This document shows, one piece after another, positions 40,421 through 64,000 of a DNA stretch of 64,000 nt. The stretch comes from Thalassocella blandensis (lineage in GTDB: Bacteria > Pseudomonadota > Gammaproteobacteria > Pseudomonadales > Cellvibrionaceae), in NCBI GenBank assembly GCA_945882995.1, contig CAMCXE010000001.1:2084-66083 (forward strand). Reading direction: 5' to 3'. The notes under the pieces were generated by a model that saw only the letters and a list, made by a program, of their open reading frames with translations, was not told the DNA's origin and did no database searches. Both the position numbers and the translations under genes were made by a program. Position 1 is the stretch's first letter. Each line of letters begins with the position of its first letter.

Positions 40421-41197
40421 ATGAAGGAAATGATTATGAAAAACGCCGTAAAAGCTGTAGCAATTCTGGGTTTTAGTGCGTGGTTGGCCGGTTGCGCTGC
40501 CACACAAACTGCCATCAGCAAGAAAGACTTGGATGTGCAAACCAAAACCAGCACCAGCATTTTTGTGGATGCGGTACCTATGCCTAAGCGCACCATATTT
40601 TTAGATATTCGCAGTGGGGTGCAGGAATTTGACCGCAATGCGTTTAAGCAATTTGTTTCTCAGCAGTTTGCAAGTAATGCCAATGCCTACCGCTTGGTGG
40701 ATGACCCGGAGGCCGCTCAGTTCTCCATGGTGGCTTATGTAGTCAACCTAGAAAAAGCCAGCCCCACCGCTGCGCAGGCGGCTTTAGGTCAGGGTTTTGT
40801 GGGGGGTAACAGCACCACCAATGCTGTGTTGGCGGGCGCTGCATTGGGTAGCATGGGCTCCAATAGCGGCTACAAAGGTGCCATTGGCGGCGGCTTAGCC
40901 TTAGGCGCTGCGGATTTTGTGGCGGGCAATATGGTGAAAGATGTGACCTATTTGCTGGTAGTGGATGTACAAATTAAAGAGCGCGCTGCCAATGGCGCCA
41001 TTGTGCGTAAAGACACGGCGATCAACACTAAGGTGTCCGATGACGGCAAATCCCGCCAAACGGTGTCTGAGGTTTCCAATCAAAAAGAATACCGCACCCG
41101 CATTGTGACCACGGCCAATAAAGTGAACTTGAAGCTGGAGGAGGCTCAACCGCTGATGTTCTCCAAAACCGCTTACGCACTATCGGGATTCTTCTGA
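40421..41197 (+). CDS. traT: TraT surface-exclusion / complement-resistance outer-membrane lipoprotein
   Basis: Lipobox LAGC. Alignable to F TraT over its whole length (AISKKDLDVQTKTS..., VKDVTYLLVVDVQIKER..., YRTRIVTTANKVNLKLEEA versus F NVEDVNYTMITDVQIAER, YQTRVVSNANKVNLKFEEA). Confidence 0.85.
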   Translation: MKEMIMKNAVKAVAILGFSAWLAGCAATQTAISKKDLDVQTKTSTSIFVDAVPMPKRTIFLDIRSGVQEFDRNAFKQFVSQQFASNANAYRLVDDPEAAQFSMVAYVVNLEKASPTAAQAALGQGFVGGNSTTNAVLAGAALGSMGSNSGYKGAIGGGLALGAADFVAGNMVKDVTYLLVVDVQIKERAANGAIVRKDTAINTKVSDDGKSRQTVSEVSNQKEYRTRIVTTANKVNLKLEEAQPLMFSKTAYALSGFF

Positions 41198-41348
41198 TTT
41201 AACCAACTTGCAATTCAATGGCGCTCCATAGGGGCGCTTTTTTTTGCCCCAAAATAACTCGGTCGAGGCAAATACAATTTGATGGCCTTCAAAAAATTCT
41301 GGCGCGGATAAGCTTGTATTACTGCCCGTTCATATTTTGGAGAAAGCC

Positions 41349-44300
41349 GTGTCGCATCCGTTTTCATTTGCACTTAAGCCGTTGGCTGCCGTTATCGCCT
41401 TGCTGGCCATTACTGCGACTCCCGCTAGTGCTGGCACCCCCGCGCAAATCAGCTTCCAAAACATCATGGATAACCGCGATGTCACCACTGGCGAAGTGGA
41501 TGCGGTATTGCAAGACAGTCAGGGCTTTTTGTGGATCGGCGGGGCCAGTGGCCTCTATCGGTTTGACGCCTACGACTTAAAACCCATGGATACGCGGCTG
41601 GATGATGGCAAGACCACTAAGGCTATTAAATTCACCAAGGCGATTTTTGAGGATTCCCACCACAAGCTGTGGGTTTCAACCCGGAACGGACTGTATCGGT
41701 ACGATCCGATATTGGATCGTATTGAGGCGCTCCAGGACGATCCCGCGCAAACACTAAAAATTAGCAGCGCCAACTTTTTAAAAACCGTTGAATTACCCAC
41801 TGGTGAAATACTGGGGTGCTCGCTGGCCGGTCTGTTTGTCATCGACCCGCAAACACTCAAATACACGGTGATTACACCCAACAACAAAAAAATTGATTGG
41901 CTACAAGGCAAGGGCGTGAACACCGCGCTAGTTGCAGCGAACGGCGATGTTTGGCTGGGTACGGATCAGGGCCTGGAGTACGTTGAATGGAAAACCAAAA
42001 CCTTCATCTTGCGAAAACCGCTTCCAGAGCAGCCGCAGTTGGTAGCCGAGAATTTTGTGACCAGCATCGCCACGGCTGGCGATGACCAGCTTTGGCTGGG
42101 CACCTCACGAGGGTTGGTGTTGTACGATACAAAATCGCTACACTCCAAGCAGTTCCTTAATAATCCAGCTGATCCTAGCAGTTTAGGCGGCAATGACATT
42201 TGGGATTTGCTGGTGGATTCCAAGGGTGCCTTATGGATCGCCACCGATGGCGGCGGGCTGGATGTATTCGATCCCGAGACTCAAACCTTCACCAATCACA
42301 AATTTGAGCCGGGTCGGGCCACTTCCCTAAATTCCGACAAGCCACGCACGGTATACGAAGATAAAAACGGCGATATTTGGGCGGGAAATTTCCCGAATGG
42401 CCTGAATTTTTACGACCGCTCCAGCGCCGCCATACAAACCTATGCCCGTGATCTCACCAACCCCAACAGCCTGAGTCACAGCGCCATTATTTCCGTCGCT
42501 GAGGCGGATAAGGGCAATTTGTGGGTGGGCACCGATGGTGGCGGATTAAATTATTTTAATCGCGCCACTGGCGAGTTTACCGCGTATAAAAATGACCCCA
42601 ATACGGCCAATTCTTTGGGTGGAAATTCTGTGCCGTCGCTCTTTGTGGATACGGCAGGCGCGGTGTGGCTGGGCACCTTCGGTGCAGGGCTAAACCGTTT
42701 TAATCCGCAGGATAAAACCACCACCCGCTATCCGTTTGAAAACCGAACGCCCACAGAGGCGGTGAGTGTTGCAAAAGCCCTGAACGGGGCCGCTGTGTGG
42801 TCCATTAAGCCGGACAAAGACAACCCTACGCTGTTGTGGCTAACCTCGCGCACCGGCGGAATTAGCCGATTGGATACGCGTACAGGGGAGTTTACGAATT
42901 ATTTTCATGTGGATGGGGACCCGAGTTCCATTGCGAATAATTCCACCTGGACAACCCTTGAGGACTCCACGGGCAATTTTTGGGTAGGTACGGCGGGCGG
43001 TTTAGACCGGCTAGACAAGGCTACGGGCAAATTCGAGCATTATTCTGGCCTGAGCAATTCATCCGCTATTAGTTTGTTGGAGGACAGCAAACAGCGTTTA
43101 TGGGTGGGCACGGACGCAGGTTTAAATTTATTGGACCCGGCCACCAAAACCTTCCAGTCGTTCACCAAGGCAGATGGGTTTGTTGACGACACTATCCGTC
43201 GCATAGTAGAGGATCACAATGGTCTGATCTGGGTAAGTACGTTTAATGGGTTTGCGTCATTGAATCCAGAAACACACAAAATCAAGACCTATAACCGCAT
43301 CGCAGGCCGATTGACCGGGGGCTTTTCTCGCTCGGGTATGTTAACCAGTCGCGGCGAAATAGTATTTGGTGGTGTAAACGGCTTGCGTATTTTTAAGCCG
43401 GATCAGCTTGAAGAAAACGCCGAGTGGCCGCAGGTGGCGCTCACTGATTTCAAGATATTCAGTGATAGCGTAGCTATAGGTGGTGACGACAAGTTGCTGA
43501 CCAGCGCCATTAATGCTACCAATCTAATCACGCTGGACCATACAAAATCCATGTTCACGCTGGAATTTACCGCGCTCAATTTCCGTGATTCTGCAAAAAA
43601 CGAATTCGCCTATAAGCTCGAAGGATTCGATAAAGATTGGATTAATGCCGGTACGGCGCGCACGGCAAAATACACCAATCTGAGTGCAGGCACCTATGTG
43701 TTCAGGGTGAGCGGCAGCAATAACGATGGGGTTTGGAATGAAGCCGGTAAAAGCCTCACCATTGTTCAATTGCCCCCACCCTGGAAAACCTGGTGGGCCT
43801 ATACGCTTTATGGGTTGATGTTTGCGGGGCTGGTGGCGGCATTTATTCGCCAGCAAATTCGTAAGCGCCAGATTATTTTGGAGCAGAACAAAATTCTGGA
43901 GATAAAGGTTGCCGAACGCACGGCGGAAGTGGTGGAGAAGGGCAAAGATATTCAAGCCATGCTGGTGAATATTCGCCAGGGACTATTCACTATTACGTCA
44001 GCGGGATTGGTTCATAACCAGTATTCGGCTTATCTTGAGACTATTTTTGAGTCACAGGATATAGCGGGGAAAGGTGTGGATGAGCTGCTGCTTTCGCGCT
44101 CTGAACTAGGGTCTGACGCTCTGGATTCTACGCAGGCCGCGCTCTTCGCAATCCTAGGTGAGAGCGAATTCAATTTCGAGTGCAACGGCTATTTGTTGCC
44201 GACCGAATTAGTTGTTCGTGTCAGCGGGCACGATAAAATCCTAGCCCTAGAGTGGAACCCCATCATTGAAAATGATGTTGTGAGCAAACTCATGGTGTCG

Positions 44301-45437
44301 GTCAGGGATGTAACGCTCTTGAAAAAAATGGAGGCCGAGGCTAGCGAACAAAAACGACAATTGGAGATTGTGGGCCAGTTACTCGGTATGAGCGCCGAGA
44401 AATTCTTAAACTTTGAGGCGGCTGCCGAAGCCTACATAGCCGCCAATCAAAACGCCCTTGAAAGTGCTCCACCTGAAAAAGACGAGACAACCATTGGCCT
44501 ACTTTTCCGCAATATGCACACCATCAAAGGCAACAGCCGCACCTTTGGCTTGAGCTATTTAAGCAATGTGGTGCATGAGGTGGAGTCAACGTATACCGAA
44601 CTAAAATCGTCCACGGAAAAACCGTGGGAGCCGTCTGCATTATTGCGTGACCTCACCAAAGCGAAAACCGCTTTGGCGGAATACAGCCATATTTATCGGA
44701 ATGTATTGGGTAGATCGCAAAACGAGCAGGAGCGCCAAGCGGGTTTTTGGATGCCCAACACCATGATGCAAAAAATACTGCATTTTGTGGACGGTGGCCT
44801 GCTGATGGATTTGAAAGTGTATGTAAGCAGAATTAATGCTAAACCCCTCGATGAATGCCTGAGCGACGTTACCGCGTCGCTAATTTCCATTGCCGCGCAG
44901 CTCGACAAAAAAGCGCCTAGCGTGATTATCCCCGCCAGCAATATCCGCATTAAACAAAACGCGCAGCAATTATTGCGTGACGTGTTTTCGCATATTTTGC
45001 GTAACTCACTCGATCACGGCCTTGAGCCACCCCTTGAGCGTGTTGCCAATGGCAAGCCCGAGGAGGGCACCATCATCATCACGCCTAGCGTGGTCGATGA
45101 TGCGCTCCATATTTTCGTCAGTGACGATGGACGCGGCCTAAACCTGCGCGCCTTGCATGGCAAAGGCATAAAACTAGGCTGGTGGGCGGAGGATGAAACA
45201 CCCTCGGTAGAGCACATGGCGCAGCTTATATTCGAGTCCGGCGTGTCCACAAAATCCACGATTTCCGATGTGTCGGGCCGTGGTGTAGGTATGGATGCGG
45301 TGCGCCAGTTTCTCATGGAGCGAGGCGGCTCAGTCGGCATAGAGTTAGACCTAGACGCATTGCCAGATACAGGTTTTGTAGCGTTTGCACTGGCCATCGT
45401 TTTACCAGCGAATACGTTTTTTGAAACGGAGGCATAA
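41349..45437 (+). CDS. Sensor histidine kinase: periplasmic two-component-regulator propeller repeats plus Y_Y_Y domain, TM, HPt domain and HATPase domain (CheA-like core)
   Basis: Many GLxxFD/LWIGT-type beta-propeller repeats. YAYKLEGFDKDW...YVFRV (Y_Y_Y), a TM segment, the HPt signature NMHTIKGNSRTFG, N-box LRNSLDHGLE, G1 DDGRGL, G2 GRGVGMD. Probable GTG start at 41349 after GGAGAA. Confidence 0.75.
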   Translation: MSHPFSFALKPLAAVIALLAITATPASAGTPAQISFQNIMDNRDVTTGEVDAVLQDSQGFLWIGGASGLYRFDAYDLKPMDTRLDDGKTTKAIKFTKAIFEDSHHKLWVSTRNGLYRYDPILDRIEALQDDPAQTLKISSANFLKTVELPTGEILGCSLAGLFVIDPQTLKYTVITPNNKKIDWLQGKGVNTALVAANGDVWLGTDQGLEYVEWKTKTFILRKPLPEQPQLVAENFVTSIATAGDDQLWLGTSRGLVLYDTKSLHSKQFLNNPADPSSLGGNDIWDLLVDSKGALWIATDGGGLDVFDPETQTFTNHKFEPGRATSLNSDKPRTVYEDKNGDIWAGNFPNGLNFYDRSSAAIQTYARDLTNPNSLSHSAIISVAEADKGNLWVGTDGGGLNYFNRATGEFTAYKNDPNTANSLGGNSVPSLFVDTAGAVWLGTFGAGLNRFNPQDKTTTRYPFENRTPTEAVSVAKALNGAAVWSIKPDKDNPTLLWLTSRTGGISRLDTRTGEFTNYFHVDGDPSSIANNSTWTTLEDSTGNFWVGTAGGLDRLDKATGKFEHYSGLSNSSAISLLEDSKQRLWVGTDAGLNLLDPATKTFQSFTKADGFVDDTIRRIVEDHNGLIWVSTFNGFASLNPETHKIKTYNRIAGRLTGGFSRSGMLTSRGEIVFGGVNGLRIFKPDQLEENAEWPQVALTDFKIFSDSVAIGGDDKLLTSAINATNLITLDHTKSMFTLEFTALNFRDSAKNEFAYKLEGFDKDWINAGTARTAKYTNLSAGTYVFRVSGSNNDGVWNEAGKSLTIVQLPPPWKTWWAYTLYGLMFAGLVAAFIRQQIRKRQIILEQNKILEIKVAERTAEVVEKGKDIQAMLVNIRQGLFTITSAGLVHNQYSAYLETIFESQDIAGKGVDELLLSRSELGSDALDSTQAALFAILGESEFNFECNGYLLPTELVVRVSGHDKILALEWNPIIENDVVSKLMVSVRDVTLLKKMEAEASEQKRQLEIVGQLLGMSAEKFLNFEAAAEAYIAANQNALESAPPEKDETTIGLLFRNMHTIKGNSRTFGLSYLSNVVHEVESTYTELKSSTEKPWEPSALLRDLTKAKTALAEYSHIYRNVLGRSQNEQERQAGFWMPNTMMQKILHFVDGGLLMDLKVYVSRINAKPLDECLSDVTASLISIAAQLDKKAPSVIIPASNIRIKQNAQQLLRDVFSHILRNSLDHGLEPPLERVANGKPEEGTIIITPSVVDDALHIFVSDDGRGLNLRALHGKGIKLGWWAEDETPSVEHMAQLIFESGVSTKSTISDVSGRGVGMDAVRQFLMERGGSVGIELDLDALPDTGFVAFALAIVLPANTFFETEA

Positions 45438-46557: not shown

Positions 46558-49500
46558 CTATTCGATGGGTAAATGACTCGGTACGGACACCTCCACACAA
46601 TTGCGCCCCGATTGTTTGGCCGTGTAAAGCGCCACATCCGCCAGCTTTAACATTTTATCAAAGGTGTCATCCGGCTTAATGCAGGCAGACACACCCATGC
46701 TAATGGTGACGCTCAACGGGTTGTCACCCTGCTCAAAGGTGTGTGCCGCTACAGCCACGCGGATTTTCTCGGCAAGGCGCACCGCGCTGTCCAGTGTGGT
46801 ACTGGGGCACATCAACACAAACTCCTCGCCGCCCCAGCGGGCCAAGTGGTCGCCCGACCGAATATTCTGCAAAACCACGTCTACCAAACCCTTAATCACC
46901 CTGTCTCCAGCATCATGGCCACGGTTGTCGTTAATGCGCTTGAAGTGGTCAATATCAAAAATCATTAAGCACACGCCCTTTTTCATTTCGTCGTTGATAA
47001 ACAGACCGGCAATGATTTGATTAAGACCGTGGCGGTTATAAATCCCGGTCATGGCGTCGGTAGCGGATAGGGTTTTGTATTTGTCGGTTTGGTTATGCAG
47101 GTGAACCCAGTAACGGCGCCCAATCTCAGCGGCCAGCAACAACAATCCGTAAAGCCCGTAAGCCCAGCTCGTGCGCCAAAAAGGCGGGGTAATTTCAATG
47201 GCAAGACTGGTTTCGCTGGTCATGCCGGGAGTTGCATGGTTGGCGGCGCGCACCCGGAAGCGGTACTGACCTGGAGCCAGGTTGGTATAGGTGGCGGAGC
47301 CTGCGGGTGTGCCCATGCGCCACTGGGTGTCGAAACCTTCCAGCCTGTAGCTGTAGTCATAGCTTGCTGAAGAGACAAAATTTAGGCCCACATAATCAAT
47401 GGAAAACATTGGGTCGCTCCAAGCTAGTTGAAGTTTTTCGGTATGACCTAAGTCTTGGCTCAAAAGTGATCCGGCACTGCCGGGGATTTGTGGTGTGCTG
47501 CCAAGGCGCAGCTCAGTAAGCACTACGCGGTGTAGGTTGGCGGGACTGTCCATCCCGGCACCCTTGGCGGTGACTTTGACCGGATCAAACTCGGTGACCC
47601 CTTCAGTACTGCCGATCCACAAGTGCTGCTGGCGATCTAGCAGCGCCGCGTTGCGCGTCACGCTAGACCCGGCTAGGCCGTGGCGTTTGCGGTAGGTTTG
47701 AACATGGCGACTAACGGGGTCAATATGGGCCAAGCCGTTGATGGTGCCTAGCCACACGCCGCCCTGAGCGTCTTCGATGATGGTGCTGATGGAATTAGAT
47801 GGCAGCCCATTATGGGTGGTGAGCCTACTGAACTGCTCTTTAGTGGGGTCTAGGATGCTCACCCCATCACTCTTGGTGCCCACCCAAATATTGCCCTTGG
47901 AATCCTCCATAAGCGCCAGTATGTGATCCGCTGCAAGGCTGTTAGGGTCGCTGGCACTATGGGTGTAATGGGTGAACCTGCGCGTGGCGATATTGAATTT
48001 ATCCAACCCCTTGAGCGTGCCCAGCCACAAGTTACCTCGGCTGTCCGGCAGCAAGGCTTTAACAAAATCATACGCCAGGGAATTGGGATTGGAGGGGTTG
48101 TGGCTGAAGTTTTCAAAACTGTCGGTGTCGGGACGGTACAGACCAAAGCCCCCTCGCTCCAAATAACACACCCAAAGGTTGCCGGTTTTATCGCGGGCAA
48201 TTTGTGAAATGTAGGGGCTGGCCACCGCGCCGGGGTTATTGGCGTCTGGGTAGTAATTCTTGAAAGTCGCCGTCTGGCGATTAAACCGATGCAGGCCACC
48301 CGACCAAGTGCCCACCCAAAGATTACCACTGGTGTCTTCGCCCAAACTGGTCACCGCATTAAAGCGTAGGCTGTTCGGGTTTTTGGGGTTGGCGGTGTAG
48401 CGAGTGCTAGCGCCAGTCACAGGGCTGATGGAGACTAATCCCGTTTCGCTGCCCACCCAAATAAGGCCTTGGGAATCCTGAAACACACTGGTGATTTGAT
48501 CGAGTGGCTGAGTATTGTCTATGGCGCCTGCGATCTTGTGCGGAATAAAGGTGGCCTTGTGTTCATCGTACAGGTTGACGCCATCCGGGAAGGTGCCAAC
48601 CCATACGTTGCCATCACGGTCTTCAAAAATATCCCGCACTTGATTTGACCGCAAAGAGCCGGGATCAAGGGCATCATGTCGCACGCGGGTAAATTCATCG
48701 GTGCTAGCATCGTAAACCGCAAGCCCGCCATGGTCGGTGGCCACCCACAGGGTTTGGTGGTATTCCCGAATATCCCGTATGGCATCGCTCCCCAGTGACC
48801 GCTCATTATCGGGGTTAGACCGGTAAATTCTGAAGGTTCGCCGGTCGGCGTTCATGCGGCTCAGCCCGCCCGAATAGGAGCCCACCCAGATTTGCCCAAG
48901 GTGGTCTTCATAGATACGCTCAATATCACCCTCTTGGAGCGATGCGGGATCATTGGCGTCGTGGCGCCACCGCTCAAATTTACCGGTCAGCGGGTCAAAT
49001 ACATTCAAGCCTTTGCTTGTAGTTCCAATCCAGACTTTTTGGTGAGAGTCGATAAACAGCGAGCGCGCATTATCGCCGCTCAAGCTGTTCGGGTTGGCGG
49101 CATCGGCCATGTGCTTGCGAAAGCCGGTGCGGTCGGCACTCAGCACATTGAGGCCTGCGGAGGTGCCGATATACAGTTGGTTCTGGGCGTCTACCGCTAG
49201 GGCCATGATCAGGCTACTGCTTAAATCCTTAGCGCCGGAACCTTCCTGGTACCGGGTAAAATCGTCGGTTTGCGCGTTGTAGCGGTTTAAGCCATTAAAA
49301 GTGCCCAGCCAAAGCACACCGGATTTATCCACGGCAAGTGCGGCTATGTAGTTGGACGATAGGGAGCGAGGGTTGAATGGGTCGTAAAAATAGAATTTGA
49401 AGTGCTGCGAATCGTAGCGCGCCAAGCCGTATTCACCGGCAAACCACATAAACCCGTGGCGGTCTTGAATGATGTCTTTAATGGCGCCGATGGATTGTTG

Positions 49501-49617
49501 TTCAGCGCCATCCGCTGTTAACAGGCGCTGAAAACGTAAATTCAGCTGCGCGTTCGGTGCGGCCGCTACAACAGCTCCGCTCCACAATACAATTAGTACC
49601 ACCACCCAACGAAACAC
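46558..49617 (-). CDS. Sensor diguanylate cyclase: propeller repeats plus Y_Y_Y domain, TM, GGDEF domain
   Basis: Same repeat architecture as the kinase. YSYRLEGFDTQW...YRFRV, a TM segment, then a GGDEF domain with RWGGEEF and DIDHFKRINDNRGHDAGD. Confidence 0.85.
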   Translation of the reverse strand: MFRWVVVLIVLWSGAVVAAAPNAQLNLRFQRLLTADGAEQQSIGAIKDIIQDRHGFMWFAGEYGLARYDSQHFKFYFYDPFNPRSLSSNYIAALAVDKSGVLWLGTFNGLNRYNAQTDDFTRYQEGSGAKDLSSSLIMALAVDAQNQLYIGTSAGLNVLSADRTGFRKHMADAANPNSLSGDNARSLFIDSHQKVWIGTTSKGLNVFDPLTGKFERWRHDANDPASLQEGDIERIYEDHLGQIWVGSYSGGLSRMNADRRTFRIYRSNPDNERSLGSDAIRDIREYHQTLWVATDHGGLAVYDASTDEFTRVRHDALDPGSLRSNQVRDIFEDRDGNVWVGTFPDGVNLYDEHKATFIPHKIAGAIDNTQPLDQITSVFQDSQGLIWVGSETGLVSISPVTGASTRYTANPKNPNSLRFNAVTSLGEDTSGNLWVGTWSGGLHRFNRQTATFKNYYPDANNPGAVASPYISQIARDKTGNLWVCYLERGGFGLYRPDTDSFENFSHNPSNPNSLAYDFVKALLPDSRGNLWLGTLKGLDKFNIATRRFTHYTHSASDPNSLAADHILALMEDSKGNIWVGTKSDGVSILDPTKEQFSRLTTHNGLPSNSISTIIEDAQGGVWLGTINGLAHIDPVSRHVQTYRKRHGLAGSSVTRNAALLDRQQHLWIGSTEGVTEFDPVKVTAKGAGMDSPANLHRVVLTELRLGSTPQIPGSAGSLLSQDLGHTEKLQLAWSDPMFSIDYVGLNFVSSASYDYSYRLEGFDTQWRMGTPAGSATYTNLAPGQYRFRVRAANHATPGMTSETSLAIEITPPFWRTSWAYGLYGLLLLAAEIGRRYWVHLHNQTDKYKTLSATDAMTGIYNRHGLNQIIAGLFINDEMKKGVCLMIFDIDHFKRINDNRGHDAGDRVIKGLVDVVLQNIRSGDHLARWGGEEFVLMCPSTTLDSAVRLAEKIRVAVAAHTFEQGDNPLSVTISMGVSACIKPDDTFDKMLKLADVALYTAKQSGRNCVEVSVPSHLPIE

Positions 49618-54279: not shown

Positions 54280-54696
54280 TTACAGCCAAGGATTAAGAAG
54301 TTTTACACCCGTCAATTCAAAATCGAGTGTATTGCGAGTCACTACTGTCATGCTATGAATAATTCCCGTTGCGGCAATAAACGCATCCCGCTCGGAGCGA
54401 GGGTCGGGAATGTGCAGCCCAGCGCAGCACTGCGCCACGGCCACGTCTATGGGTAAAATGCGCCCTGCAAAGGCGGGTATCACTTGCTCGTCGAGCCAGC
54501 GTCGTAGCATATCGCTTTGCACCGGGTCTTTCTGTGCGACGCGACGAATACCCAGTTCAAGTTCCATGATGGTTATCACTGATAAATGCAGTGAATCCGT
54601 GGCCACCGCCTGCGCCCAAGTCACCACACCCTTATGGGCGCGCCCTGCCCGCCCTTTGCGCAGCTCGGACACCACATGGGTATCGAGTAAATACAT
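54280..54696 (-). CDS. vapC: Type II toxin VapC (PIN domain ribonuclease)
   Basis: MYLLDTHVVSELRK...ITIMELELG...AFIAATGIIHSMTVVTRNTLDF, a typical PIN/VapC-FitB pattern with conserved acidic residues. Confidence 0.85.
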   Translation of the reverse strand: MYLLDTHVVSELRKGRAGRAHKGVVTWAQAVATDSLHLSVITIMELELGIRRVAQKDPVQSDMLRRWLDEQVIPAFAGRILPIDVAVAQCCAGLHIPDPRSERDAFIAATGIIHSMTVVTRNTLDFELTGVKLLNPWL

Positions 54697-54962
54697 CAGG
54701 ATAAATCCGGTATTTGCGCCGCAACGGCAATTTTTTGAGGCTCGAATTCAATTGTGTCATCAGCGGGCATGGACAGTAATTCGGTAATGTTTGGCTGCTT
54801 ACCCGTCATGCGACGAAATTCATCGAAGGTCATGAGCACATAGGAAGGCTTGCCGCGATCGGTGATAAATACCGGCCCCTGCAAGGCGGCCCGCTTGGCG
54901 CCGCCGGTGTCTTGATTGAATTCGCGGCTGGAAACGGATGTTGTCGGCATGGTAAACCCCAA
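54696..54962 (-). CDS. Type II antitoxin (Phd/YefM-type) partner of VapC
   Basis: SSREFNQDTGGAKRAALQGPVFITDRGKPSYVLMTFDEF is a typical Phd/YefM N-terminus. Its stop overlaps the vapC start. The likely true start is Met 54950. Confidence 0.75.
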   Translation of the reverse strand: MGFTMPTTSVSSREFNQDTGGAKRAALQGPVFITDRGKPSYVLMTFDEFRRMTGKQPNITELLSMPADDTIEFEPQKIAVAAQIPDLS

Positions 54963-57731: not shown

Positions 57732-57910
57732 GGAGAGTAAAAATCGTGACTTTCACGAACCCGTAAGCGAAGTCAGGGCGCAAGCCTGGGGTTCATTGTA
57801 ATTTGTAAACACTCACTGTTTTCATTTGAAAACAACACCTTGACCCTGCGGGCACAAACTCCCGTAGGGGCTTGTGTTGGCGGGGTTTTCTTATTTTTGA
57901 GGAAACCTTT

Positions 57911-60274
57911 ATGAGCGCAGTAACCACTTTAAACACCACTGAAATTGCTGATGTAAACAATGTTGATACCAGCGTTTCGCTGTCTGCCGGGGAGTTGATC
58001 GAAGCGGCAGACACTATGAATTTGCGGGATTTTATCAGTGAATTTGGCGCCGATTTATTAGCGGCAGTCGAACGCGATAATCCACCCGTGTACACCGCTG
58101 GTTGCCCAGTCTTGTCGCGCAGTCATGTACTGCAAAACTTGCTGCGTAAACCGTTTGAAGCCCAAGCAGAAGCCGTGCAAGCCTTGGCTGCACTGTTATT
58201 CGACAAGGGTGAAAAAGCGGCCATTTTGAATGCGGAAATGGGCACCGGCAAAACCATGATGGCAATTTCGCTAGCGGCAGTAGCGCAGCGTGAAGGCTTC
58301 CGAAATACCTTAATCATTAGTCCACCGCACTTGGTGTACAAATGGCGACGGGAAATTCAGGAGACTATACGCGGTGCAAAAGTTTGGGTGCTAAACGGCC
58401 CAGATACCCTGGCTAAATTGCTGAAGTTGCGTGAAGCCCTGCGGGTTGCACCGTCTGATATGCCCGAGTTCTTCATCATCGGGCGGGTCAGAATGCGGCT
58501 TGGGTATCACTGGCGTCATGCGTTTACGCTGCGTCGCTTTCGTCGTTTGGTCTGTGAGGATCAAACCGGCGGTGGTGAAGGTGTACGGCGGATTGCACTG
58601 GCAACAGAGCATCCCGCCTGCGGACACTGCGGTGAATGGGTAAAGAATGAGGATGGCGATTTGCAAAGCGCACTCGACATTCAAATTCAAACCAAACAAC
58701 TGCGCTGCAAAAAATGCAATTCAGCCTTGTGGACGCTGATGCGGCCCAAAGCGGCACCGGTGGGACAAGGTGAGGTGGTGAAAAAGGCCTTGTGCCAATT
58801 GCCCACCATTGGCCCCAAAACAGCGGATCGTTTGATCGGCATGTTCGGAGCCAAAATGCTTGAAGGTATGCTAGCCGACAACATTTATGAGTTTGTGAAC
58901 CTCATGGATGAAGACGGCGAGCTGGTGTTTTCGGATCGTCAAGCCACTCGCATGGAGCGGGCGCTTGCCACTACCGAGTTCAGTTTTGGCCAAGGCGGCT
59001 ATCAGGCTACAGAATTCCTCAAGCGTTATATGCCGAAGGGTTTTGTGGATCTACTGGTAGTGGACGAAGGGCACGAATATAAGAACGAAGGCAGTGCGCA
59101 AGGGCAAGCCATGGGTGTATTGGCGGCGCTCTCCAAAAAGGTATTGCTGTTAACGGGTACTTTAATGGGGGGTTATGCCAGTGACCTGTTCTTTTTGTTG
59201 TGGCGCTCTATGCCCCACCGCATGATAGAACTGGGTTTTAAATGCAGTGGTCGCGGCTCTATGGCGGCAGCTTCCATGGCGTTTATGCGGGAGCATGGCG
59301 TACTGAAAGACATTTACAAAACCAAGGAAGGCGGTAATCACCGCACCGCCCGTGGCAATCGCACGGTGGTGAGCACGGTAAAAGGCCCAGGCTTTGGCCC
59401 ATTAGGCATAGCCCAATGCGTTTTGCCGTTCACGGTGTTTTTGAAACTTAAAGACATTGGGCAAAAAGTATTACCGCCTTACCAGGAGTATTACGTTGAG
59501 ATCGACATGGAAAGCGAACAGCGTTATCAATATTTAAAAATGGAGAAAAAATTGACCCAAGAACTCAAGGAGGCTTTGCGTAAAGGGGATAAGAGCTTAA
59601 TGGGTGTTGTACTCAACACACTGTTAGCTTGGCCGGACACCTGTTTTATGCCAGAGGTTGTTAAGCACCCCAGAACCCGTGAAGTATTGGCGATAGCTCC
59701 AGCGTTATTTAAAGATGACGGTATGGAAACGCCAAAAGAGACTTGGTTAAAGCAATATTGCTTGGATCAGCAACAAGATGGACGCCGCGTACTGGTTTAT
59801 ACCAGCTACACCGGCAAGCGTGATACCTGTAATCGCTTAAAGCACATGCTAAGCGAAGCAGGGTTAAAAGTCGCCGTGCTGCGCTCCACCGTCGCCACAG
59901 AAAAGCGTGAAGACTGGGTAGCGGATCAAGTGGATAAAGGCATTGAGGTAATTATCTGCAACCCCGAACTGGTGAAAACCGGGCTGGATTTGCTGGAATT
60001 TCCTTCAATCGTCTTTATGCAAACCGGCTACAACGTGTACACCTTGATGCAAGCGGCCAGACGCTCATGGCGTATTGGCCAAACCAACGATGTTGACGTG
60101 GTATTTTTAGGCTACGCCCAATCCGCACAAAGTCGCTGCCTTTCACTAATGGCAGAGAAAATAGCGGTAAGCCAGTCCACCTCGGGGGACATTCCCGACT
60201 CAGGACTCGACTCGCTGAATCAGCGTGGCGATAGTGTTGAGGTGGCTATGGCAAGGGATTTGTTAGCTGCGTAA
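57911..60274 (+). CDS. SNF2-family helicase with inserted zinc ribbon
   Basis: Motif I NAEMGTGKTMMA, motif II VVDEGHEYKN, motif III LLTGTLMGG, motif VI QAARRSWRIGQ. Insertion CGHCGEWV...CKKCNSALW between motifs I and II. Start at ATG 57911. Confidence 0.8.
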   Translation: MSAVTTLNTTEIADVNNVDTSVSLSAGELIEAADTMNLRDFISEFGADLLAAVERDNPPVYTAGCPVLSRSHVLQNLLRKPFEAQAEAVQALAALLFDKGEKAAILNAEMGTGKTMMAISLAAVAQREGFRNTLIISPPHLVYKWRREIQETIRGAKVWVLNGPDTLAKLLKLREALRVAPSDMPEFFIIGRVRMRLGYHWRHAFTLRRFRRLVCEDQTGGGEGVRRIALATEHPACGHCGEWVKNEDGDLQSALDIQIQTKQLRCKKCNSALWTLMRPKAAPVGQGEVVKKALCQLPTIGPKTADRLIGMFGAKMLEGMLADNIYEFVNLMDEDGELVFSDRQATRMERALATTEFSFGQGGYQATEFLKRYMPKGFVDLLVVDEGHEYKNEGSAQGQAMGVLAALSKKVLLLTGTLMGGYASDLFFLLWRSMPHRMIELGFKCSGRGSMAAASMAFMREHGVLKDIYKTKEGGNHRTARGNRTVVSTVKGPGFGPLGIAQCVLPFTVFLKLKDIGQKVLPPYQEYYVEIDMESEQRYQYLKMEKKLTQELKEALRKGDKSLMGVVLNTLLAWPDTCFMPEVVKHPRTREVLAIAPALFKDDGMETPKETWLKQYCLDQQQDGRRVLVYTSYTGKRDTCNRLKHMLSEAGLKVAVLRSTVATEKREDWVADQVDKGIEVIICNPELVKTGLDLLEFPSIVFMQTGYNVYTLMQAARRSWRIGQTNDVDVVFLGYAQSAQSRCLSLMAEKIAVSQSTSGDIPDSGLDSLNQRGDSVEVAMARDLLAA

Positions 60275-60281
60275 AACCTTT

Positions 60282-60302
60282 AACCCTCTTCGGAGGGTTT
60301 TT
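60282..60302 (+). terminator. Rho-independent terminator (UUCG loop) after the helicase
   Basis: AACCCTC-TTCG-GAGGGTT followed by TTTTT. Confidence 0.8.
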
Positions 60303-60391
60303 GTTTATGCTCCCCGCGCTATCCACTTCGCCGTAAAGGTGCTTGTAGTGATAGTGAGGGCAACTACCTGATTTTAATGCTATATTATCTC

Positions 60392-60598
60392 GTAAGTTGT
60401 AGTTTCCCGCCGCTAAGGCGGTTTAAAGTATGAAATTCAGCGACTTTATGTTGATTTCGCGTTTCCCGCCGCTAAGGCGGTTTAAAGGATCAAATAGAAA
60501 CCAAGCCCGTTTAGCAAACCGTTTCCCGCCGCTAAGGCGGTTTAAAGACGCATAGCATTACCGTCATCCTGAATGCCATTGCTTCCCGCCGCTAAGGC
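60392..60598 (+). CRISPR. Orphan CRISPR mini-array, type I-F-like 28-nt repeat geometry: 3 intact repeats, 1 degenerate terminal repeat, 3 spacers
   Basis: GTTTCCCGCCGCTAAGGCGGTTTAAAG is identical at 60392, 60451 and 60511 (periods 59 and 60). Unique 31-33 nt spacers. Degenerate repeat GCTTCCCGCCGCTAAGGCTT... at 60571. AT-rich leader with TGcTATATT at 60368-60376. No cas genes in the window. Confidence 0.7.
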
Positions 60599-60606
60599 TT
60601 TTGTAG

Positions 60607-60630
60607 GTTTAGAGGCGTTTACCCGCCGAT
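60607..60630 (+). repeat. Spacer-less repeat-like hairpin (solitary CRISPR-repeat-like unit)
   Basis: GTTTACCCGCCGATTAGGCGGATC keeps the CCGCC/GGCGG stem and the 5-nt loop size of the array repeat, but lies only 9 nt after the degenerate repeat. Confidence 0.5.
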
Positions 60631-60637
60631 TAGGCGG

Positions 60638-60660
60638 ATCGTTCGTTAAACCCTCTTTGG
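60638..60660 (+). terminator. Rho-independent terminator, near-duplicate of 60282-60302
   Basis: AAACCCTC-TTTG-GAGGGTTT followed by a T-run. Confidence 0.8.
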
Positions 60661-60689
60661 AGGGTTTTTTAATATCTGGCGGTTAAATT

Positions 60690-61529
60690 ATGGATTTCGA
60701 TACCAAGCTGCCGTTTGCAGTTAGCCTGGCCTCAGGTCTGTTAATTGAGGTGGATGACGCGGAGCCCGGCAGGAGTTGTAATTGTGTCTGCCCAAGCTGT
60801 AGGCAAGGAGTTGTTGCAAGACAGGGTCAAAAGAATCGCTGGTGTTTTGCTCACGATAAAGACTCGGAGCACAAACCGACCAAGATTTGTGAAGTATCAT
60901 TTTATAGCTGCTGCCGACTATTTATTATTGAGTCGGTACTGGGGAAAAAGCCCGAATTCATTGCTTTGCCTGATTATCTAATCGGAGAGTATAGAAAAGA
61001 TTTTTCCATGGTACCCCTCACCGACACCCTATCAGGCGGAACATTTCCCGTATTAGAGGTGCGCGGCAGCGAAGCGCATGACTCGCACGATTTCACACTC
61101 ATGCTTGAGGGGCGTACCGTAGACGTGTTCTTAAGCTATCCCGGCAGGAAGAAACCCGGCCCCCCATTTTCGGCGGCAGCCATCAAAATTGACTTATCAA
61201 TCTTGCAGAAGCGGTACGCGGAAACTGAGACGGGGCGCTACCTGTTCCGTGGGCTTGTGAATGAAATATTTGAAGAGCGATATTCTGCTGAATGTATAAA
61301 GTGGTTGTACACCCCGGAGGAGCAGGCTATACGAGATGGATTGCGTGAGCGCCTAAAGAATGAAGTTCAATTTGAGCAAGACTACGATGAATGGCGCAGC
61401 CAACTACCAACAAAACTACAACCAAAAAACAAAGCTGAAACACTCAAATGCGAAGACTGTGGTAGCGAGTATTACCCCGGCCAACCCTGCGTTAAATGCC
61501 GCAGAAAGAAAGAGTTGCACATCATATAA
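60690..61529 (+). CDS. Zinc-finger protein with CoiA-like N-terminus and C-terminal zinc ribbon, unknown function
   Basis: GLLIEVDDAEPGRSCNCVCPSCRQGVVARQGQKNRWCFAH resembles the CoiA-type N-terminal finger. VDVFLSY...AAIKIDLS resembles the CoiA nuclease-core layout. C-terminal CEDCGSEYYPGQPCVKC. Tentative. Confidence 0.4.
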   Translation: MDFDTKLPFAVSLASGLLIEVDDAEPGRSCNCVCPSCRQGVVARQGQKNRWCFAHDKDSEHKPTKICEVSFYSCCRLFIIESVLGKKPEFIALPDYLIGEYRKDFSMVPLTDTLSGGTFPVLEVRGSEAHDSHDFTLMLEGRTVDVFLSYPGRKKPGPPFSAAAIKIDLSILQKRYAETETGRYLFRGLVNEIFEERYSAECIKWLYTPEEQAIRDGLRERLKNEVQFEQDYDEWRSQLPTKLQPKNKAETLKCEDCGSEYYPGQPCVKCRRKKELHII

Positions 61530-61607
61530 ACGACATGGCCGATTTTAGATTTTTGGTGTGGCCAACCAAAGCGGCTAAATTCACCACCTAATTTGAAGGA
61601 TGATGTT

Positions 61608-62039
61608 ATGGGAAATCATTTGCGCGTGGCGGCATCGAACGGCGAGATTATTGAAAAGTCCCTGTTGGCGCAGGAACAAGACAGCGTAACGACTAGACCA
61701 TATCGTCGATGGATTGTGTCGACCCTGCTGCTTGTCCCTAAATTGTCTTTAAAGTTGGCTATTTTTGCCCTACTCGGTATTCGCTATGCGCTGTTTTTTG
61801 TTCTCTATTGGCTGCGAATACTGATTTACCCCGTTATGAGCCTGGTTTGCGGGCTGACTCTTCTCGCGGCTCTGCTTATGCTTTTAAACACGAGCTATGA
61901 GCCTCGCCTTTTTGTGGCGGCAAGATTGGGGGGGTTCTCATTCGGGTGTTTTCTCTTCGTCTGGTTTTACGATGGGCTACTGTTGGTGTTGAGCCCAAGG
62001 TCGATCATCATTGATGATGGGCGAGACAACGATCACTAG
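61608..62039 (+). CDS. Membrane protein, unknown function
   Basis: Start at ATG 61608 (GGATGA upstream). 4 predicted TM helices. Confidence 0.45.
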   Translation: MGNHLRVAASNGEIIEKSLLAQEQDSVTTRPYRRWIVSTLLLVPKLSLKLAIFALLGIRYALFFVLYWLRILIYPVMSLVCGLTLLAALLMLLNTSYEPRLFVAARLGGFSFGCFLFVWFYDGLLLVLSPRSIIIDDGRDNDH

Positions 62040-62088
62040 CAATAACGCCCGCTGCAAATTCTTTTTGGGGCGCTTTACTGCGCAAGAT

Positions 62089-62112
62089 ACTTATAGTCCG
62101 TGGACCTATCAT
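62089..62112 (+). promoter_or_regulatory. C-box-like operator upstream of the controller gene
   Basis: ACTTATAGTC-CGTG-GACCTATCAT resembles the GACTnnnAGTC-n4-GACTnnnAGTC C-box layout of C-protein-controlled R-M systems. About 25 nt upstream of the C-gene ATG. Confidence 0.5.
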
Positions 62113-62134
62113 CATCATGTTGCTCTAATTGCGT

Positions 62135-62368
62135 ATGCCCAAACATCATGATGACTTCCTCGCATGGTTCGGTGGTCGAGTTAGAGCGCTCAGGCACCAG
62201 AAGAACCTTTCCCAAGAAGAATTGGCCGAACAGGCCGGGATAGATCGCACCTATGTGGGTGGGGTTGAGCGCGGGGAGCGTAATGTAAGTCTATTAAATG
62301 TTAAAAGACTTGCAGATGCTCTGGGTATCGACCCCAAGGATCTATTCAGCGATGATTTCAAATTTTGA
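62135..62368 (+). CDS. Restriction-modification controller (C) protein, XRE-family HTH
   Basis: LSQEELAEQAGIDRTYVGGVERGERNVSLLNVKRLADALGI is a typical C-protein HTH. Its 3' end overlaps the downstream endonuclease gene. Confidence 0.75.
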   Translation: MPKHHDDFLAWFGGRVRALRHQKNLSQEELAEQAGIDRTYVGGVERGERNVSLLNVKRLADALGIDPKDLFSDDFKF

Positions 62369-63530
62369 ACACCTTTCCCTCATACCTTATCGATTAAAGC
62401 AATTTCGTGAACAGTCGGGATTTACTGCTGCACAGGTTGAGGAGTGTTTAATTCTCGGCCCGGGGTGGGTTCACGCAATCGAGTCGGGATTAATTATCCC
62501 GAGTCTCGATCTGGTTGCATCACTACTATCGGTCTACAGCAAGAGTCTCGCTGATCTCGCAGAAGGCGCTACGGGCGCCGTGCCCAGTATTCATCGGTCA
62601 ATAGTAGCTGCTGCCAATGGTCAGAACATAGACGTCAATTTTGAATATTCAAAACATGATGCAACATATAAACTTCTTAATGCGACCATTGAGCAATTTA
62701 ATGAGGTTGTGTTAACGCTACGCAATGGCTTGGCTCGGCTTAGCAGCTTGAATAATGACGACAGTGACCTAGCTAAATCCATTAAAACAGAAAGCGTAGC
62801 GAGCGCCTTTCTAAAGGCGGTAATGCTTTGGCCTTCCGCAAATCCTTCAGATATTTGGTGGTTTGTCGTTTATCGCGCTTATTGCGATCAATACAATCAT
62901 CCATCTGAGCATTCTAGGCTTGATTACACGCAAAGCTGGAAGCGGACTGGCGGATGGGCTTTAGAAAAAATTTTAGAAAAACATTATTCCCCTATACTTG
63001 CGCAGCATGGTATTAATTTAGTAATTGCAGACGGTGCACGGAAGTCGCGGCTCATTCAACGCATCAGTATAGGGCATCGCCTTGAGGCCGATAAAATTGA
63101 TATCCTCCTCACAGTGGGTGAAGGGGTGTCGGAAAAATTAATTGGTGTTGTTCATGTTAAGGCAAGTTTTGCTGAACGCAGAACAGACGATGTACCAATG
63201 AGTCAAGCCCTGGTGAAGGCTGGCTACATTTCTCCGCTCTGGACTATGGATTGTAAAAGTAGTCCATCCACAAACCCGATAAACCGTGGCGAGCTGGGTG
63301 AGGTTTTCATCGGGCAAGGAGTGGATTATAGGAGCGCAAAACGCAAAGATATTGAAGATGACAGGTATTTCTCCGCCTGCTTCTCATATAACAAAAACAC
63401 CAAACCAACACCAGATGAATATAACGCAAGAGCGCGGGTTGTGGTTTGTGATTTTTCCACCCCAAACGATTTATTTGTGCGATTCATTGTGACCGAACGG
63501 GACCGAGTTAGATTAATGCTTGGGATTTAA
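62352..63530 (+). CDS. Putative type II restriction endonuclease with N-terminal HTH-like region
   Basis: Assigned by context: it follows the C gene with a 17-nt overlap and is convergent with a DNA methyltransferase. Possible PD-(D/E)xK elements (RLEADKIDILL, VHVKASF). Specificity unknown. Confidence 0.5.
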   Translation: MISNFEHLSLIPYRLKQFREQSGFTAAQVEECLILGPGWVHAIESGLIIPSLDLVASLLSVYSKSLADLAEGATGAVPSIHRSIVAAANGQNIDVNFEYSKHDATYKLLNATIEQFNEVVLTLRNGLARLSSLNNDDSDLAKSIKTESVASAFLKAVMLWPSANPSDIWWFVVYRAYCDQYNHPSEHSRLDYTQSWKRTGGWALEKILEKHYSPILAQHGINLVIADGARKSRLIQRISIGHRLEADKIDILLTVGEGVSEKLIGVVHVKASFAERRTDDVPMSQALVKAGYISPLWTMDCKSSPSTNPINRGELGEVFIGQGVDYRSAKRKDIEDDRYFSACFSYNKNTKPTPDEYNARARVVVCDFSTPNDLFVRFIVTERDRVRLMLGI

Positions 63531-64000
63531 CTGCTGCCACATCACAAAGCCTTTCGTTTGATGCACCTACTTGTTCGCGGTCAATTTCAAAACCAATATA
63601 CGTGCAGCCCAGCCTTAGCGCAGCCATTCCTGTGGTGCCAGAACCCGAAAATGGATCAAGCACCACAACGTCTTCTCCAGATTTGCCATATGCATCAATG
63701 CAGCGGTACGGCAGCTCTTCTGGGAATCGTGAGAAATGTTTAACCCCGTCTATTTTTTCATTTGCAAACTCCCACACGCTTCGCACGGGTGGTGTCACGC
63801 GGAAGCTATGCTGCTCATTTTTTGCCAGCAAATAAATTGGCTCATGACAGCGGTGAGGTCTGCGGCACTTTCCCTCCGGCATTGGATTTTTTTTTCGCCA
63901 TATCACTTCGCCTCGGTAAACATATCCTGAATCAGAAAGGTTCAATATCAATCGGTAAGGCAGGGCCAGCAAGTTGCCGTACTGTAACCAGCCGGTATCT
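63508..64000 (-). CDS. DNA methyltransferase (N4/N6, beta-class), 5' end outside the window
   Basis: SAM-binding motif VVLDPFSGSGTTGMAA near the C-terminus. The frame stays open upstream of the track start (…DTGWLQYGNLLALPYRL), so the catalytic DPPY-type motif should lie beyond 64000. Confidence 0.75.
   Translation of the reverse strand, partial: DTGWLQYGNLLALPYRLILNLSDSGYVYRGEVIWRKKNPMPEGKCRRPHRCHEPIYLLAKNEQHSFRVTPPVRSVWEFANEKIDGVKHFSRFPEELPYRCIDAYGKSGEDVVVLDPFSGSGTTGMAALRLGCTYIGFEIDREQVGASNERLCDVAAVKSQALI

Follow-up and report, generated by a model that had tools for sequence, protein, structure and literature searches.

A short CRISPR array lies behind a helicase gene in DNA of Thalassocella blandensis. 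The DNA analysed, called the window below, is a stretch of 64,000 nt (contig CAMCXE010000001.1, forward strand, positions 2,084 to 66,083); positions are those of the window, and the features of the array locus are all on its + strand. The array sits in an intergenic region of 415 nt, between the stop codon of the helicase gene and a gene that begins at 60690. The helicase, of the SNF2/DEAD-box type (57872-60274, 800 aa; Pfam SNF2-rel_dom, ResIII and Helicase_C), is a backbone gene of the mobile element that carries the array. The gene on the other side (60690-61529) encodes a CoiA_N zinc-ribbon family protein of 279 aa (Pfam CoiA_N) and is the first of the variable defence cargo.

The intergenic region opens with the terminator hairpin of the helicase gene (60279-60302; stem 60282-60299, a UUCG loop and a T-run after it). 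A leader-like region of 99 nt and 43% GC follows (60303-60401), with an extended -10 element, TGCTATATT, at 60378-60386. Then come the repeats and spacers, and after them a second terminator hairpin (60646-60673), in which a stem at 60648-60667 is followed by a T-run. The two hairpins are identical at 22 of 24 positions (60279-60302 versus 60646-60669); the unit between them is 343 nt long, and the distance from start to start is 367 nt. The original prediction, made from the letters of the window, was right that two terminators bracket the unit, but it started the second at 60636 rather than 60646 and made the unit about 335 bp. Its extended -10 sequence is present, 10 nt from where it was placed (60368-60376), and the feature that it closed at 60662 ends near 60673.

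The closest relatives of the helicase, 77-80% identical, are in Cellvibrio and related genomes. In seven related elements a single terminator hairpin of the same type comes right after the helicase stop codon and is followed by variable cargo; at the homologous site a repeat array is present in 0/7. Because these seven relatives have one terminator and no array there, the array is an insertion specific to this element, as had been supposed for the cassette, and the insert is flanked by a duplicated helicase terminator. A survey of the same locus in related ICEs for spacer turnover had also been suggested; the seven relatives have no array there in which it could be followed.

Repeats, spacers and fold

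The sequence GTTTCCCGCCGCTAAGGCGGTTTAAAG occurs three times without change, at 60402, 60461 and 60521, and once in a degenerate copy at 60581, with start-to-start spacings of 59, 60 and 60 nt. Repeat 1 (60402-60429) is this sequence plus a variable 28th base, and repeats 2 (60461-60488) and 3 (60521-60548) are the same as repeat 1 across 27 nt. Between and behind them lie three spacers, each unique: spacer 1, of 31 nt (ATGAAATTCAGCGACTTTATGTTGATTTCGC, 60430-60460), spacer 2, of 32 nt (ATCAAATAGAAACCAAGCCCGTTTAGCAAACC, 60489-60520), and spacer 3, also of 32 nt (CGCATAGCATTACCGTCATCCTGAATGCCATT, 60549-60580), which has a damaged repeat downstream. These are the generic marks of a CRISPR array, namely three or more direct repeats, nearly identical and 23-47 nt long, and unique spacers of similar length, and the three identical repeats, their 59-60 nt period and the unique spacers were all correctly read in the original prediction.

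The repeat folds (-10 kcal/mol) as 5 nt, a 5-bp stem, a 5-nt loop, the returning arm of the 5-bp stem and 8 nt, and its dot-bracket is that of the type I-F repeat of Pseudomonas aeruginosa PA14. The layout as a whole, with a 28-nt repeat, a 32-nt spacer, a Cas6f hairpin and an 8-nt 3' handle, is that of the I-F class, which bears out the geometry first proposed.

The distal end of the array is less regular. Repeat 4 (60581-60615) is split by a 7-nt insertion, TTTTGTA (60599-60605), in its 3' stem arm. In a gapped alignment it matches the consensus at 24 of 25 positions outside the insertion, with GGTTTAGAG coming after the insertion; three of the five stem pairs remain contiguous, and the hairpin is gone in the computed fold. 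The fourth repeat is degenerate, as had been noted, but its 3' arm is divided and not simply lost. Repeat 5 (GTTTACCCGCCGATTAGGCGGATCGTTCG, 60617-60645) is a terminal degenerate unit that starts 1 nt past repeat 4, with no spacer between them, and it retains a Cas6f-type hairpin and has lost the 3' handle. It is the further spacer-less hairpin of the original prediction, which had put it at 60607-60630.

Might the repeat not be CRISPR at all, but a repetitive extragenic palindromic (REP) or bacterial interspersed mosaic element (BIME)-like sequence, some other intergenic hairpin repeat, or a structured small RNA? The repeat is indeed a GC-rich intergenic hairpin, and a weak rsmX-like Rfam match covers repeat 4, repeat 5 and the terminator (60587-60670; E = 0.09). 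That match scores 20.9 bits against a gathering score of 56 and is most likely spurious and owed to the terminator hairpin; no Rfam family reached its gathering threshold in the array region, and a permissive scan returned sub-threshold noise only. The 16-nt repeat core, moreover, is confined within the window to the array locus, where it is found in three exact copies and two with 2 mismatches, all inside 240 nt. With up to three mismatches 0.73 matches are expected per 64-kb window, and the observed count was reached in 0 of 100 shuffles. The REP-like dispersal that had been named in advance as counting against a CRISPR array is not seen within the window. Add to this the regular 59-60 nt spacing with unique inserts, and the homology of the repeat to repeats that flank I-F cas operons (below), and a non-CRISPR origin is effectively refuted; we give it hardly any credence.

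Type I-F ancestry without cas genes

Where do relatives of the window repeat occur? We made a degenerate repeat scan over 185,579 species-representative genomes, and a scan of JGI metagenome contigs limited to the TTTA(R)A(R) handle. A closely related repeat, GTTCCCCGCCGCA(C/T)AGGCGGCTTAGAAA, with a 60-nt period, is present in Suttonella ornithocola, in a Pseudomonadales metagenome-assembled genome (MAG), where the retrieved stretch holds 80 repeats, and in a Deltaproteobacteria MAG. The JGI scan gave two contigs, L018 and L019. In L019 the repeat, GTTTCCCGCCGCGTAGGCGGTTTAGAAG, is identical to the window repeat at 23-24 of 28 positions, and the array begins about 100 nt past a Cas1f gene (TIGR03637, 277 bits; cutoff 150). 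Homologues of this Cas1f, 77-81% identical, are found in Ca. Competibacter (L029, GCA_016710995.1) and in an ENA metagenome contig (L030), both of which have complete I-F operons followed by arrays of GTTTTCCGCCGTGTAGGCGGTTTAGAAG, a repeat identical to that of the window at 21-22 of 28 positions. Because of this similarity to repeats beside Cas1f and full I-F operons, we place the window repeat in a bona fide I-F lineage. Geometry and an identity of 21-24/28 to these Cas-linked repeats together support, as judged from sequence, the type I-F class originally assigned to the array. The I-F cas operon to be looked for in relatives has come to light in part, with related repeats beside the I-F cas genes and not the exact one.

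The three Competibacter-type loci (L029, L030 and L019) share with the window a 28-nt repeat with the backbone GTTT(T/C)CCGCCG...GGCGGTTTA.A., the hairpin, a 60-nt period and U as the first base of the handle. These loci have cas2-3, csy1-3, cas6f and cas1f, long arrays, a conserved leader, a (C/T)GTA loop and the handle TTTAGAAG, whereas the window has no cas genes, the handle TTTAAAG(N), and a loop of CTAA where its nearest Cas-linked relatives have CGTA or TGTA. The handle deserves attention. In I-F systems a conserved 3' handle, CU(U/A)AGAAA, becomes the 5' handle of the CRISPR RNA (crRNA), and the window handle, TTTAAAG plus a variable base, does not conform to it; compared with the Cas-linked handle TTTAGAAG, that of the window, TTTAAAGN, differs at two or three of 8 positions. 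In the collections searched the window handle is not found beside any cas operon, and this, with the terminator duplication, makes up the two small peculiarities of the locus.

Three further observations concern these relatives. The handle of L029 and L030 is itself TTTAGAAG, as against the canonical CTTAGAAA. Their gene order (L029:3171-13195 and L030:2401-11450) is unusual, in that cas2-3 is divergent from csy1-csy2-csy3-cas6f-cas1f and the array lies past cas1f. The second JGI contig, L018 (= L023, IMGVR_UViG_3300031229_000030), is a viral contig of 15.5 kb with a nine-repeat I-F array of GTTCCCCGCCGTGTAGGCGGTTTAGAAG (L018:587-1091) that adjoins a lambda-type portal gene (TIGR01539, E = 1e-93); this phage-borne array has its repeat lineage in common with the window, and its source metagenome in common with L019.

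No companion genes accompany the window array. Pfam, PADLOC and NCBIfam scans of the open reading frames (ORFs) of the element recognised no cas1, cas2-3, csy1-3 or cas6f in cis; the family summary scans give the best 25 families, and per-protein scans covered the remaining ORFs. When the seven proteins of the L029 locus (Cas2-3, Csy1-3, Cas6f, Cas1f and an adjacent zinc-finger protein) were compared by tblastn with the window and the 2.5-kb remainder of the element, the best E-value was 0.075. The absence of Cas proteins from the 64-kb window, as first reported, is upheld, and by these scans the array is an orphan on an element, a circle of 66.5 kb, with no Cas encoded on it. Two other possibilities were considered and rejected. 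The 279-aa CoiA_N protein is not a hidden Cas or CRISPR-associated gene product, as it has no repeat-associated mysterious protein (RAMP) or Cas fold. Nor is the array of type IV-A or of the CRISPR-associated transposon (CAST) type: the scans recognised no DinG, Csf, TniQ or Tns protein, and the adjacent helicase is the backbone SNF2 gene of the element family.

Possible function of the array

What might an array without Cas proteins do? We lean towards an orphan type I-F mini-array that has its own promoter and terminator and acts in trans through the I-F system of its host. Transcription would start from the array's extended -10 promoter and end at the second terminator. In a host with a compatible I-F system, whose repeat family may be written GGCGGTTTAGAAG, Cas6f would cleave the repeats, each at the 3' foot of its hairpin. 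Spacers 1 and 2, with a perfect repeat on either side, would then enter the Csy/Cascade complex of the host in the form of 60-nt crRNAs. Guided by them, Cas2-3 would act on DNA with matching sequence in phages or rival mobile elements that have yet to be sequenced, and such interference would profit element and host alike. Spacer 3 should not mature normally, because repeat 4 downstream has lost its Cas6f hairpin; two normal crRNAs at most would be expected from the array.

There are precedents for this proposal. Isolated I-F arrays distant from cas genes, such as CRISPR3 of P. aeruginosa, show interference and priming activity when Cas is provided in trans (PMC13142298), conjugative plasmids commonly have orphan arrays, which are short (PMC9071438), and arrays borne by integrative and conjugative elements (ICEs) target prophages and other ICEs (PMC9841420). 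The window array resembles these orphan or isolated arrays, including those of ICEs and integrative and mobilizable elements (PMC9841420), in being short and cas-less, in its I-F repeat, in its place on a conjugative element, and in its presumed dependence on Cas proteins encoded elsewhere in the cell. It departs from them in its non-canonical handle, in that no spacer targets were found, and in that no cognate host system was identified; and the isolated arrays of P. aeruginosa keep CR2-like leaders, whereas the window leader is unrelated to Cas-linked leaders.

Several results weigh against the orphan mini-array as we picture it. No convincing protospacer turned up for any of the three spacers. 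Searches of PLSDB and INPHARED by blastn at E up to 10 gave chance-level matches only, and exact-pattern scans of IMG/VR for the 5' and the 3' portion of every spacer found none, though these three collections cover the environment of the element poorly, which limits the protospacer negatives. Against eight loci from related elements the best spacer match was 23/32, again the chance level. The matches in plasmid, phage and related-element sequences that the original prediction had looked to are thus not seen beyond chance. Expression is predicted from the -10 element alone, and a consensus promoter scan made no call, finding no -35/-10 pair in the leader-like region. Repeats 4 and 5 are damaged, and the distal end of the array is decaying. 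The locus was found in one copy only in the data searched. The exact repeat with its TTTAAAG handle occurs neither in the species-representative genomes nor in the JGI contigs scanned, and no cognate Cas system with the exact window repeat is known. The 8-nt 3' handle, UUUAAAGN, agrees with the canonical CUUAGAAA at 4 of 8 positions and with the nearest Cas-linked handle, UUUAGAAG, at 5 of 8. Finally, the leader is not significantly similar to those found at Cas-linked arrays in the nearest repeat family, its local alignment scores being equal to the shuffled mean, whereas the leaders of L019, L029 and L030 align among themselves; since it is unlike them, competence for adaptation is unsupported.

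One spacer match was examined closely and rejected as chance. An inverted match of 32 nt, with 78% complementarity, links spacer 1 to the helicase gene of the element itself. Inside the spacer proper 23 of 32 positions match; a score of 22 came up in 9 of 200 trials with shuffled spacers, and an unrelated site in L020, one of the loci compared, matches spacer 1 equally (23/32). The helicase match brings two stop codons into the frame of that gene.

Is the array then a remnant in decay? Recombination at the helicase terminator might have captured a piece of an I-F array, either chromosomal or borne by an element, and that piece might now hitch-hike in the cargo hotspot without function. The broken repeat 4, the degenerate repeat 5 with its spacer gone, a handle unlike that of every Cas-linked relative found, the leader without homology, the want of targets and the single sighting of the locus all fit such a history, and for orphan arrays on plasmids an origin as remnants has been proposed (PMC9071438). 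Yet repeats 1-3 are still identical across 27 nt, the spacers are of canonical length, the promoter of the unit is plausible and its terminator clean, and degenerate distal repeats are normal in working arrays too. We regard a remnant as possible, and as the less probable of these two histories.

The hairpin, which is intact, and the handle, which is atypical in all units, bring to mind the RNA anti-CRISPRs (Racrs). Racrs that imitate I-F repeats undergo processing by Cas6f and form aberrant Cas6f-Cas7f subcomplexes, and they are found on phages and plasmids (PMC10651486). By analogy, the Cas6f hairpins of the window, with their non-canonical handle, might bind Cas6f and Cas7f without recruiting Cas5f-Cas8f, titrate the I-F system of a recipient and so protect the incoming element. 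Like Racrs, the window units are hairpins that mimic a repeat, have divergent flanks and are carried by a mobile element, and unit 5 is a spacer-less hairpin right before the terminator. But the Racrs that have been described each consist of a solitary repeat unit and do not form repeat-spacer-repeat arrays in which the spacers have the canonical 32 nt (PMC10651486, PMC11656645). A Racr is a single spacer-less repeat-like hairpin, often near an acr gene; units 1-3 of the window form a regular repeat-spacer array, and family scans of the ORFs recognised no acr or aca genes beside it. The handle, too, is less odd than it looks: only two of its positions are really unusual, because its first U and last G also occur in the Cas-linked family UUUAGAAG. 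A decoy of this kind seems to us unlikely.

A bolder idea is that the cassette is a new element-borne CRISPR RNA tool. It might be a multi-unit decoy that, through its altered 5' handle, poisons the I-F Cascade of a recipient at conjugative entry, or a guide set for an undescribed I-F variant, and the promoter, array and terminator might together be a mobile cassette that inserts by duplicating an intrinsic terminator. We hold this to be improbable as well. The atypical handle and the terminator duplication are mildly unusual, and neither changes current understanding.

If the orphan mini-array that we favour is functional, might it serve competition between elements? Mini-arrays of viruses and plasmids used in this way are likewise very short, carried on mobile elements, built of host-type repeats and without cas genes (PMC11656645). 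The cases described combine repeats identical to the host's with spacers that match relatives of the carrier, whereas the window spacers reach at most 23/32 against related elements, the chance level. In the databases searched no spacer was found to match other mobile elements, or the carrier's relatives, beyond chance, and in the reverse comparison the best match of 100 spacers from related I-F arrays to the element and its relatives was 22/32.

The carrier element and its cargo

The window is included in an ENA metagenome contig of 66,693 nt (ERZ27280279:k141_653682). An internal stretch of this contig (L001:13312-15826) links the window's end to its start via 2,515 nt, and because it bridges the two the element is a circle of about 66.5 kb. 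Its backbone is that of pKLC102, ICEclc and PFGI-1, with traC_PFL_4706, TraD, a MobH relaxase, ICE_PFGI_1_parB and many TIGR0374x-5x families; TraI_2, SSB and ParA are further matches. The DUF3275-DUF6094-helicase block has the order found in pKLC102, and the window helicase is 59% identical to that of pKLC102. By these matches the carrier is assigned to the pKLC102/ICEclc (MOBH, MPF_G) family. It had been described beforehand as an ICE. The conjugative family is confirmed, but the assembly is circular, and no scanned ORF of the element matches a tyrosine integrase (Phage_integrase); for these reasons the carrier may be a plasmid-like or excised form and not an integrated ICE. The sole recombinase is a 192-aa resolvase, encoded in the part of the element outside the window. 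Plasmids as well as islands are known in the pKLC102/ICEclc family (PMC7913775).

CRISPR on this family is not unprecedented, and orphan arrays on conjugative plasmids and ICEs have already been described. In P. aeruginosa, pKLC102/PAPI-1 islands carry complete type I-C systems (PMC7913775, PMC4669384), so that CRISPR cargo is common to the two cases; those systems have cas genes and actively growing arrays, whereas the window has a cas-less mini-array of I-F type. If functional, this would be a pKLC102/ICEclc-type element that carries the RNA part alone of a I-F system and relies on whichever I-F host it has entered, a cheap way of equipping a new cell with immune memory or with interference against rivals. 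The locus adds one environmental example, whose source is probably a Cellvibrio-like or Competibacter-like community, to a pattern documented for plasmids, ICEs and the isolated arrays of P. aeruginosa.

The site behind the backbone SNF2 helicase is, by the gene content of the relatives, a variable defence-cargo hotspot of the element family. The cargo there is type I restriction-modification in one relative (L026:6319-10319), type II restriction-modification in another (L027:6319-10319), SNF2, DUF4391 and methyltransferase genes in a third (L020:8340-14340), and an SMC/AAA-type protein in a fourth (L028:6319-10319). In the window (60690-63972) the CoiA_N protein is followed by a restriction-modification pair, a helix-turn-helix/BsaWI-like endonuclease and a methyltransferase.

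The CoiA_N protein belongs to a family with more than 1000 remote relatives; the contig of one homologue has no array. Its AlphaFold2 model is confident (predicted local distance difference test score, pLDDT, 88) and has no significant fold match in the PDB. Weak and insignificant fold matches tend towards PD-(D/E)XK nucleases (RecU, Bax1), and cysteines are among the conserved features of the protein, as are motifs of the H-x-H-like and W..HP kinds. It is possibly an uncharacterised defence nuclease.

Elsewhere on the element are a PIN/PhdYeFM toxin-antitoxin pair and a TraT-like surface-exclusion lipoprotein (54280-54962 and 40421-41197, respectively). The cargo at 41337-45437 and 46558-49617 encodes two very large Reg_prop/Y_Y_Y beta-propeller sensor proteins, one a hybrid histidine kinase (1366 aa) and the other a GGDEF diguanylate cyclase (1019 aa), which are unusual signalling cargo for a conjugative element.

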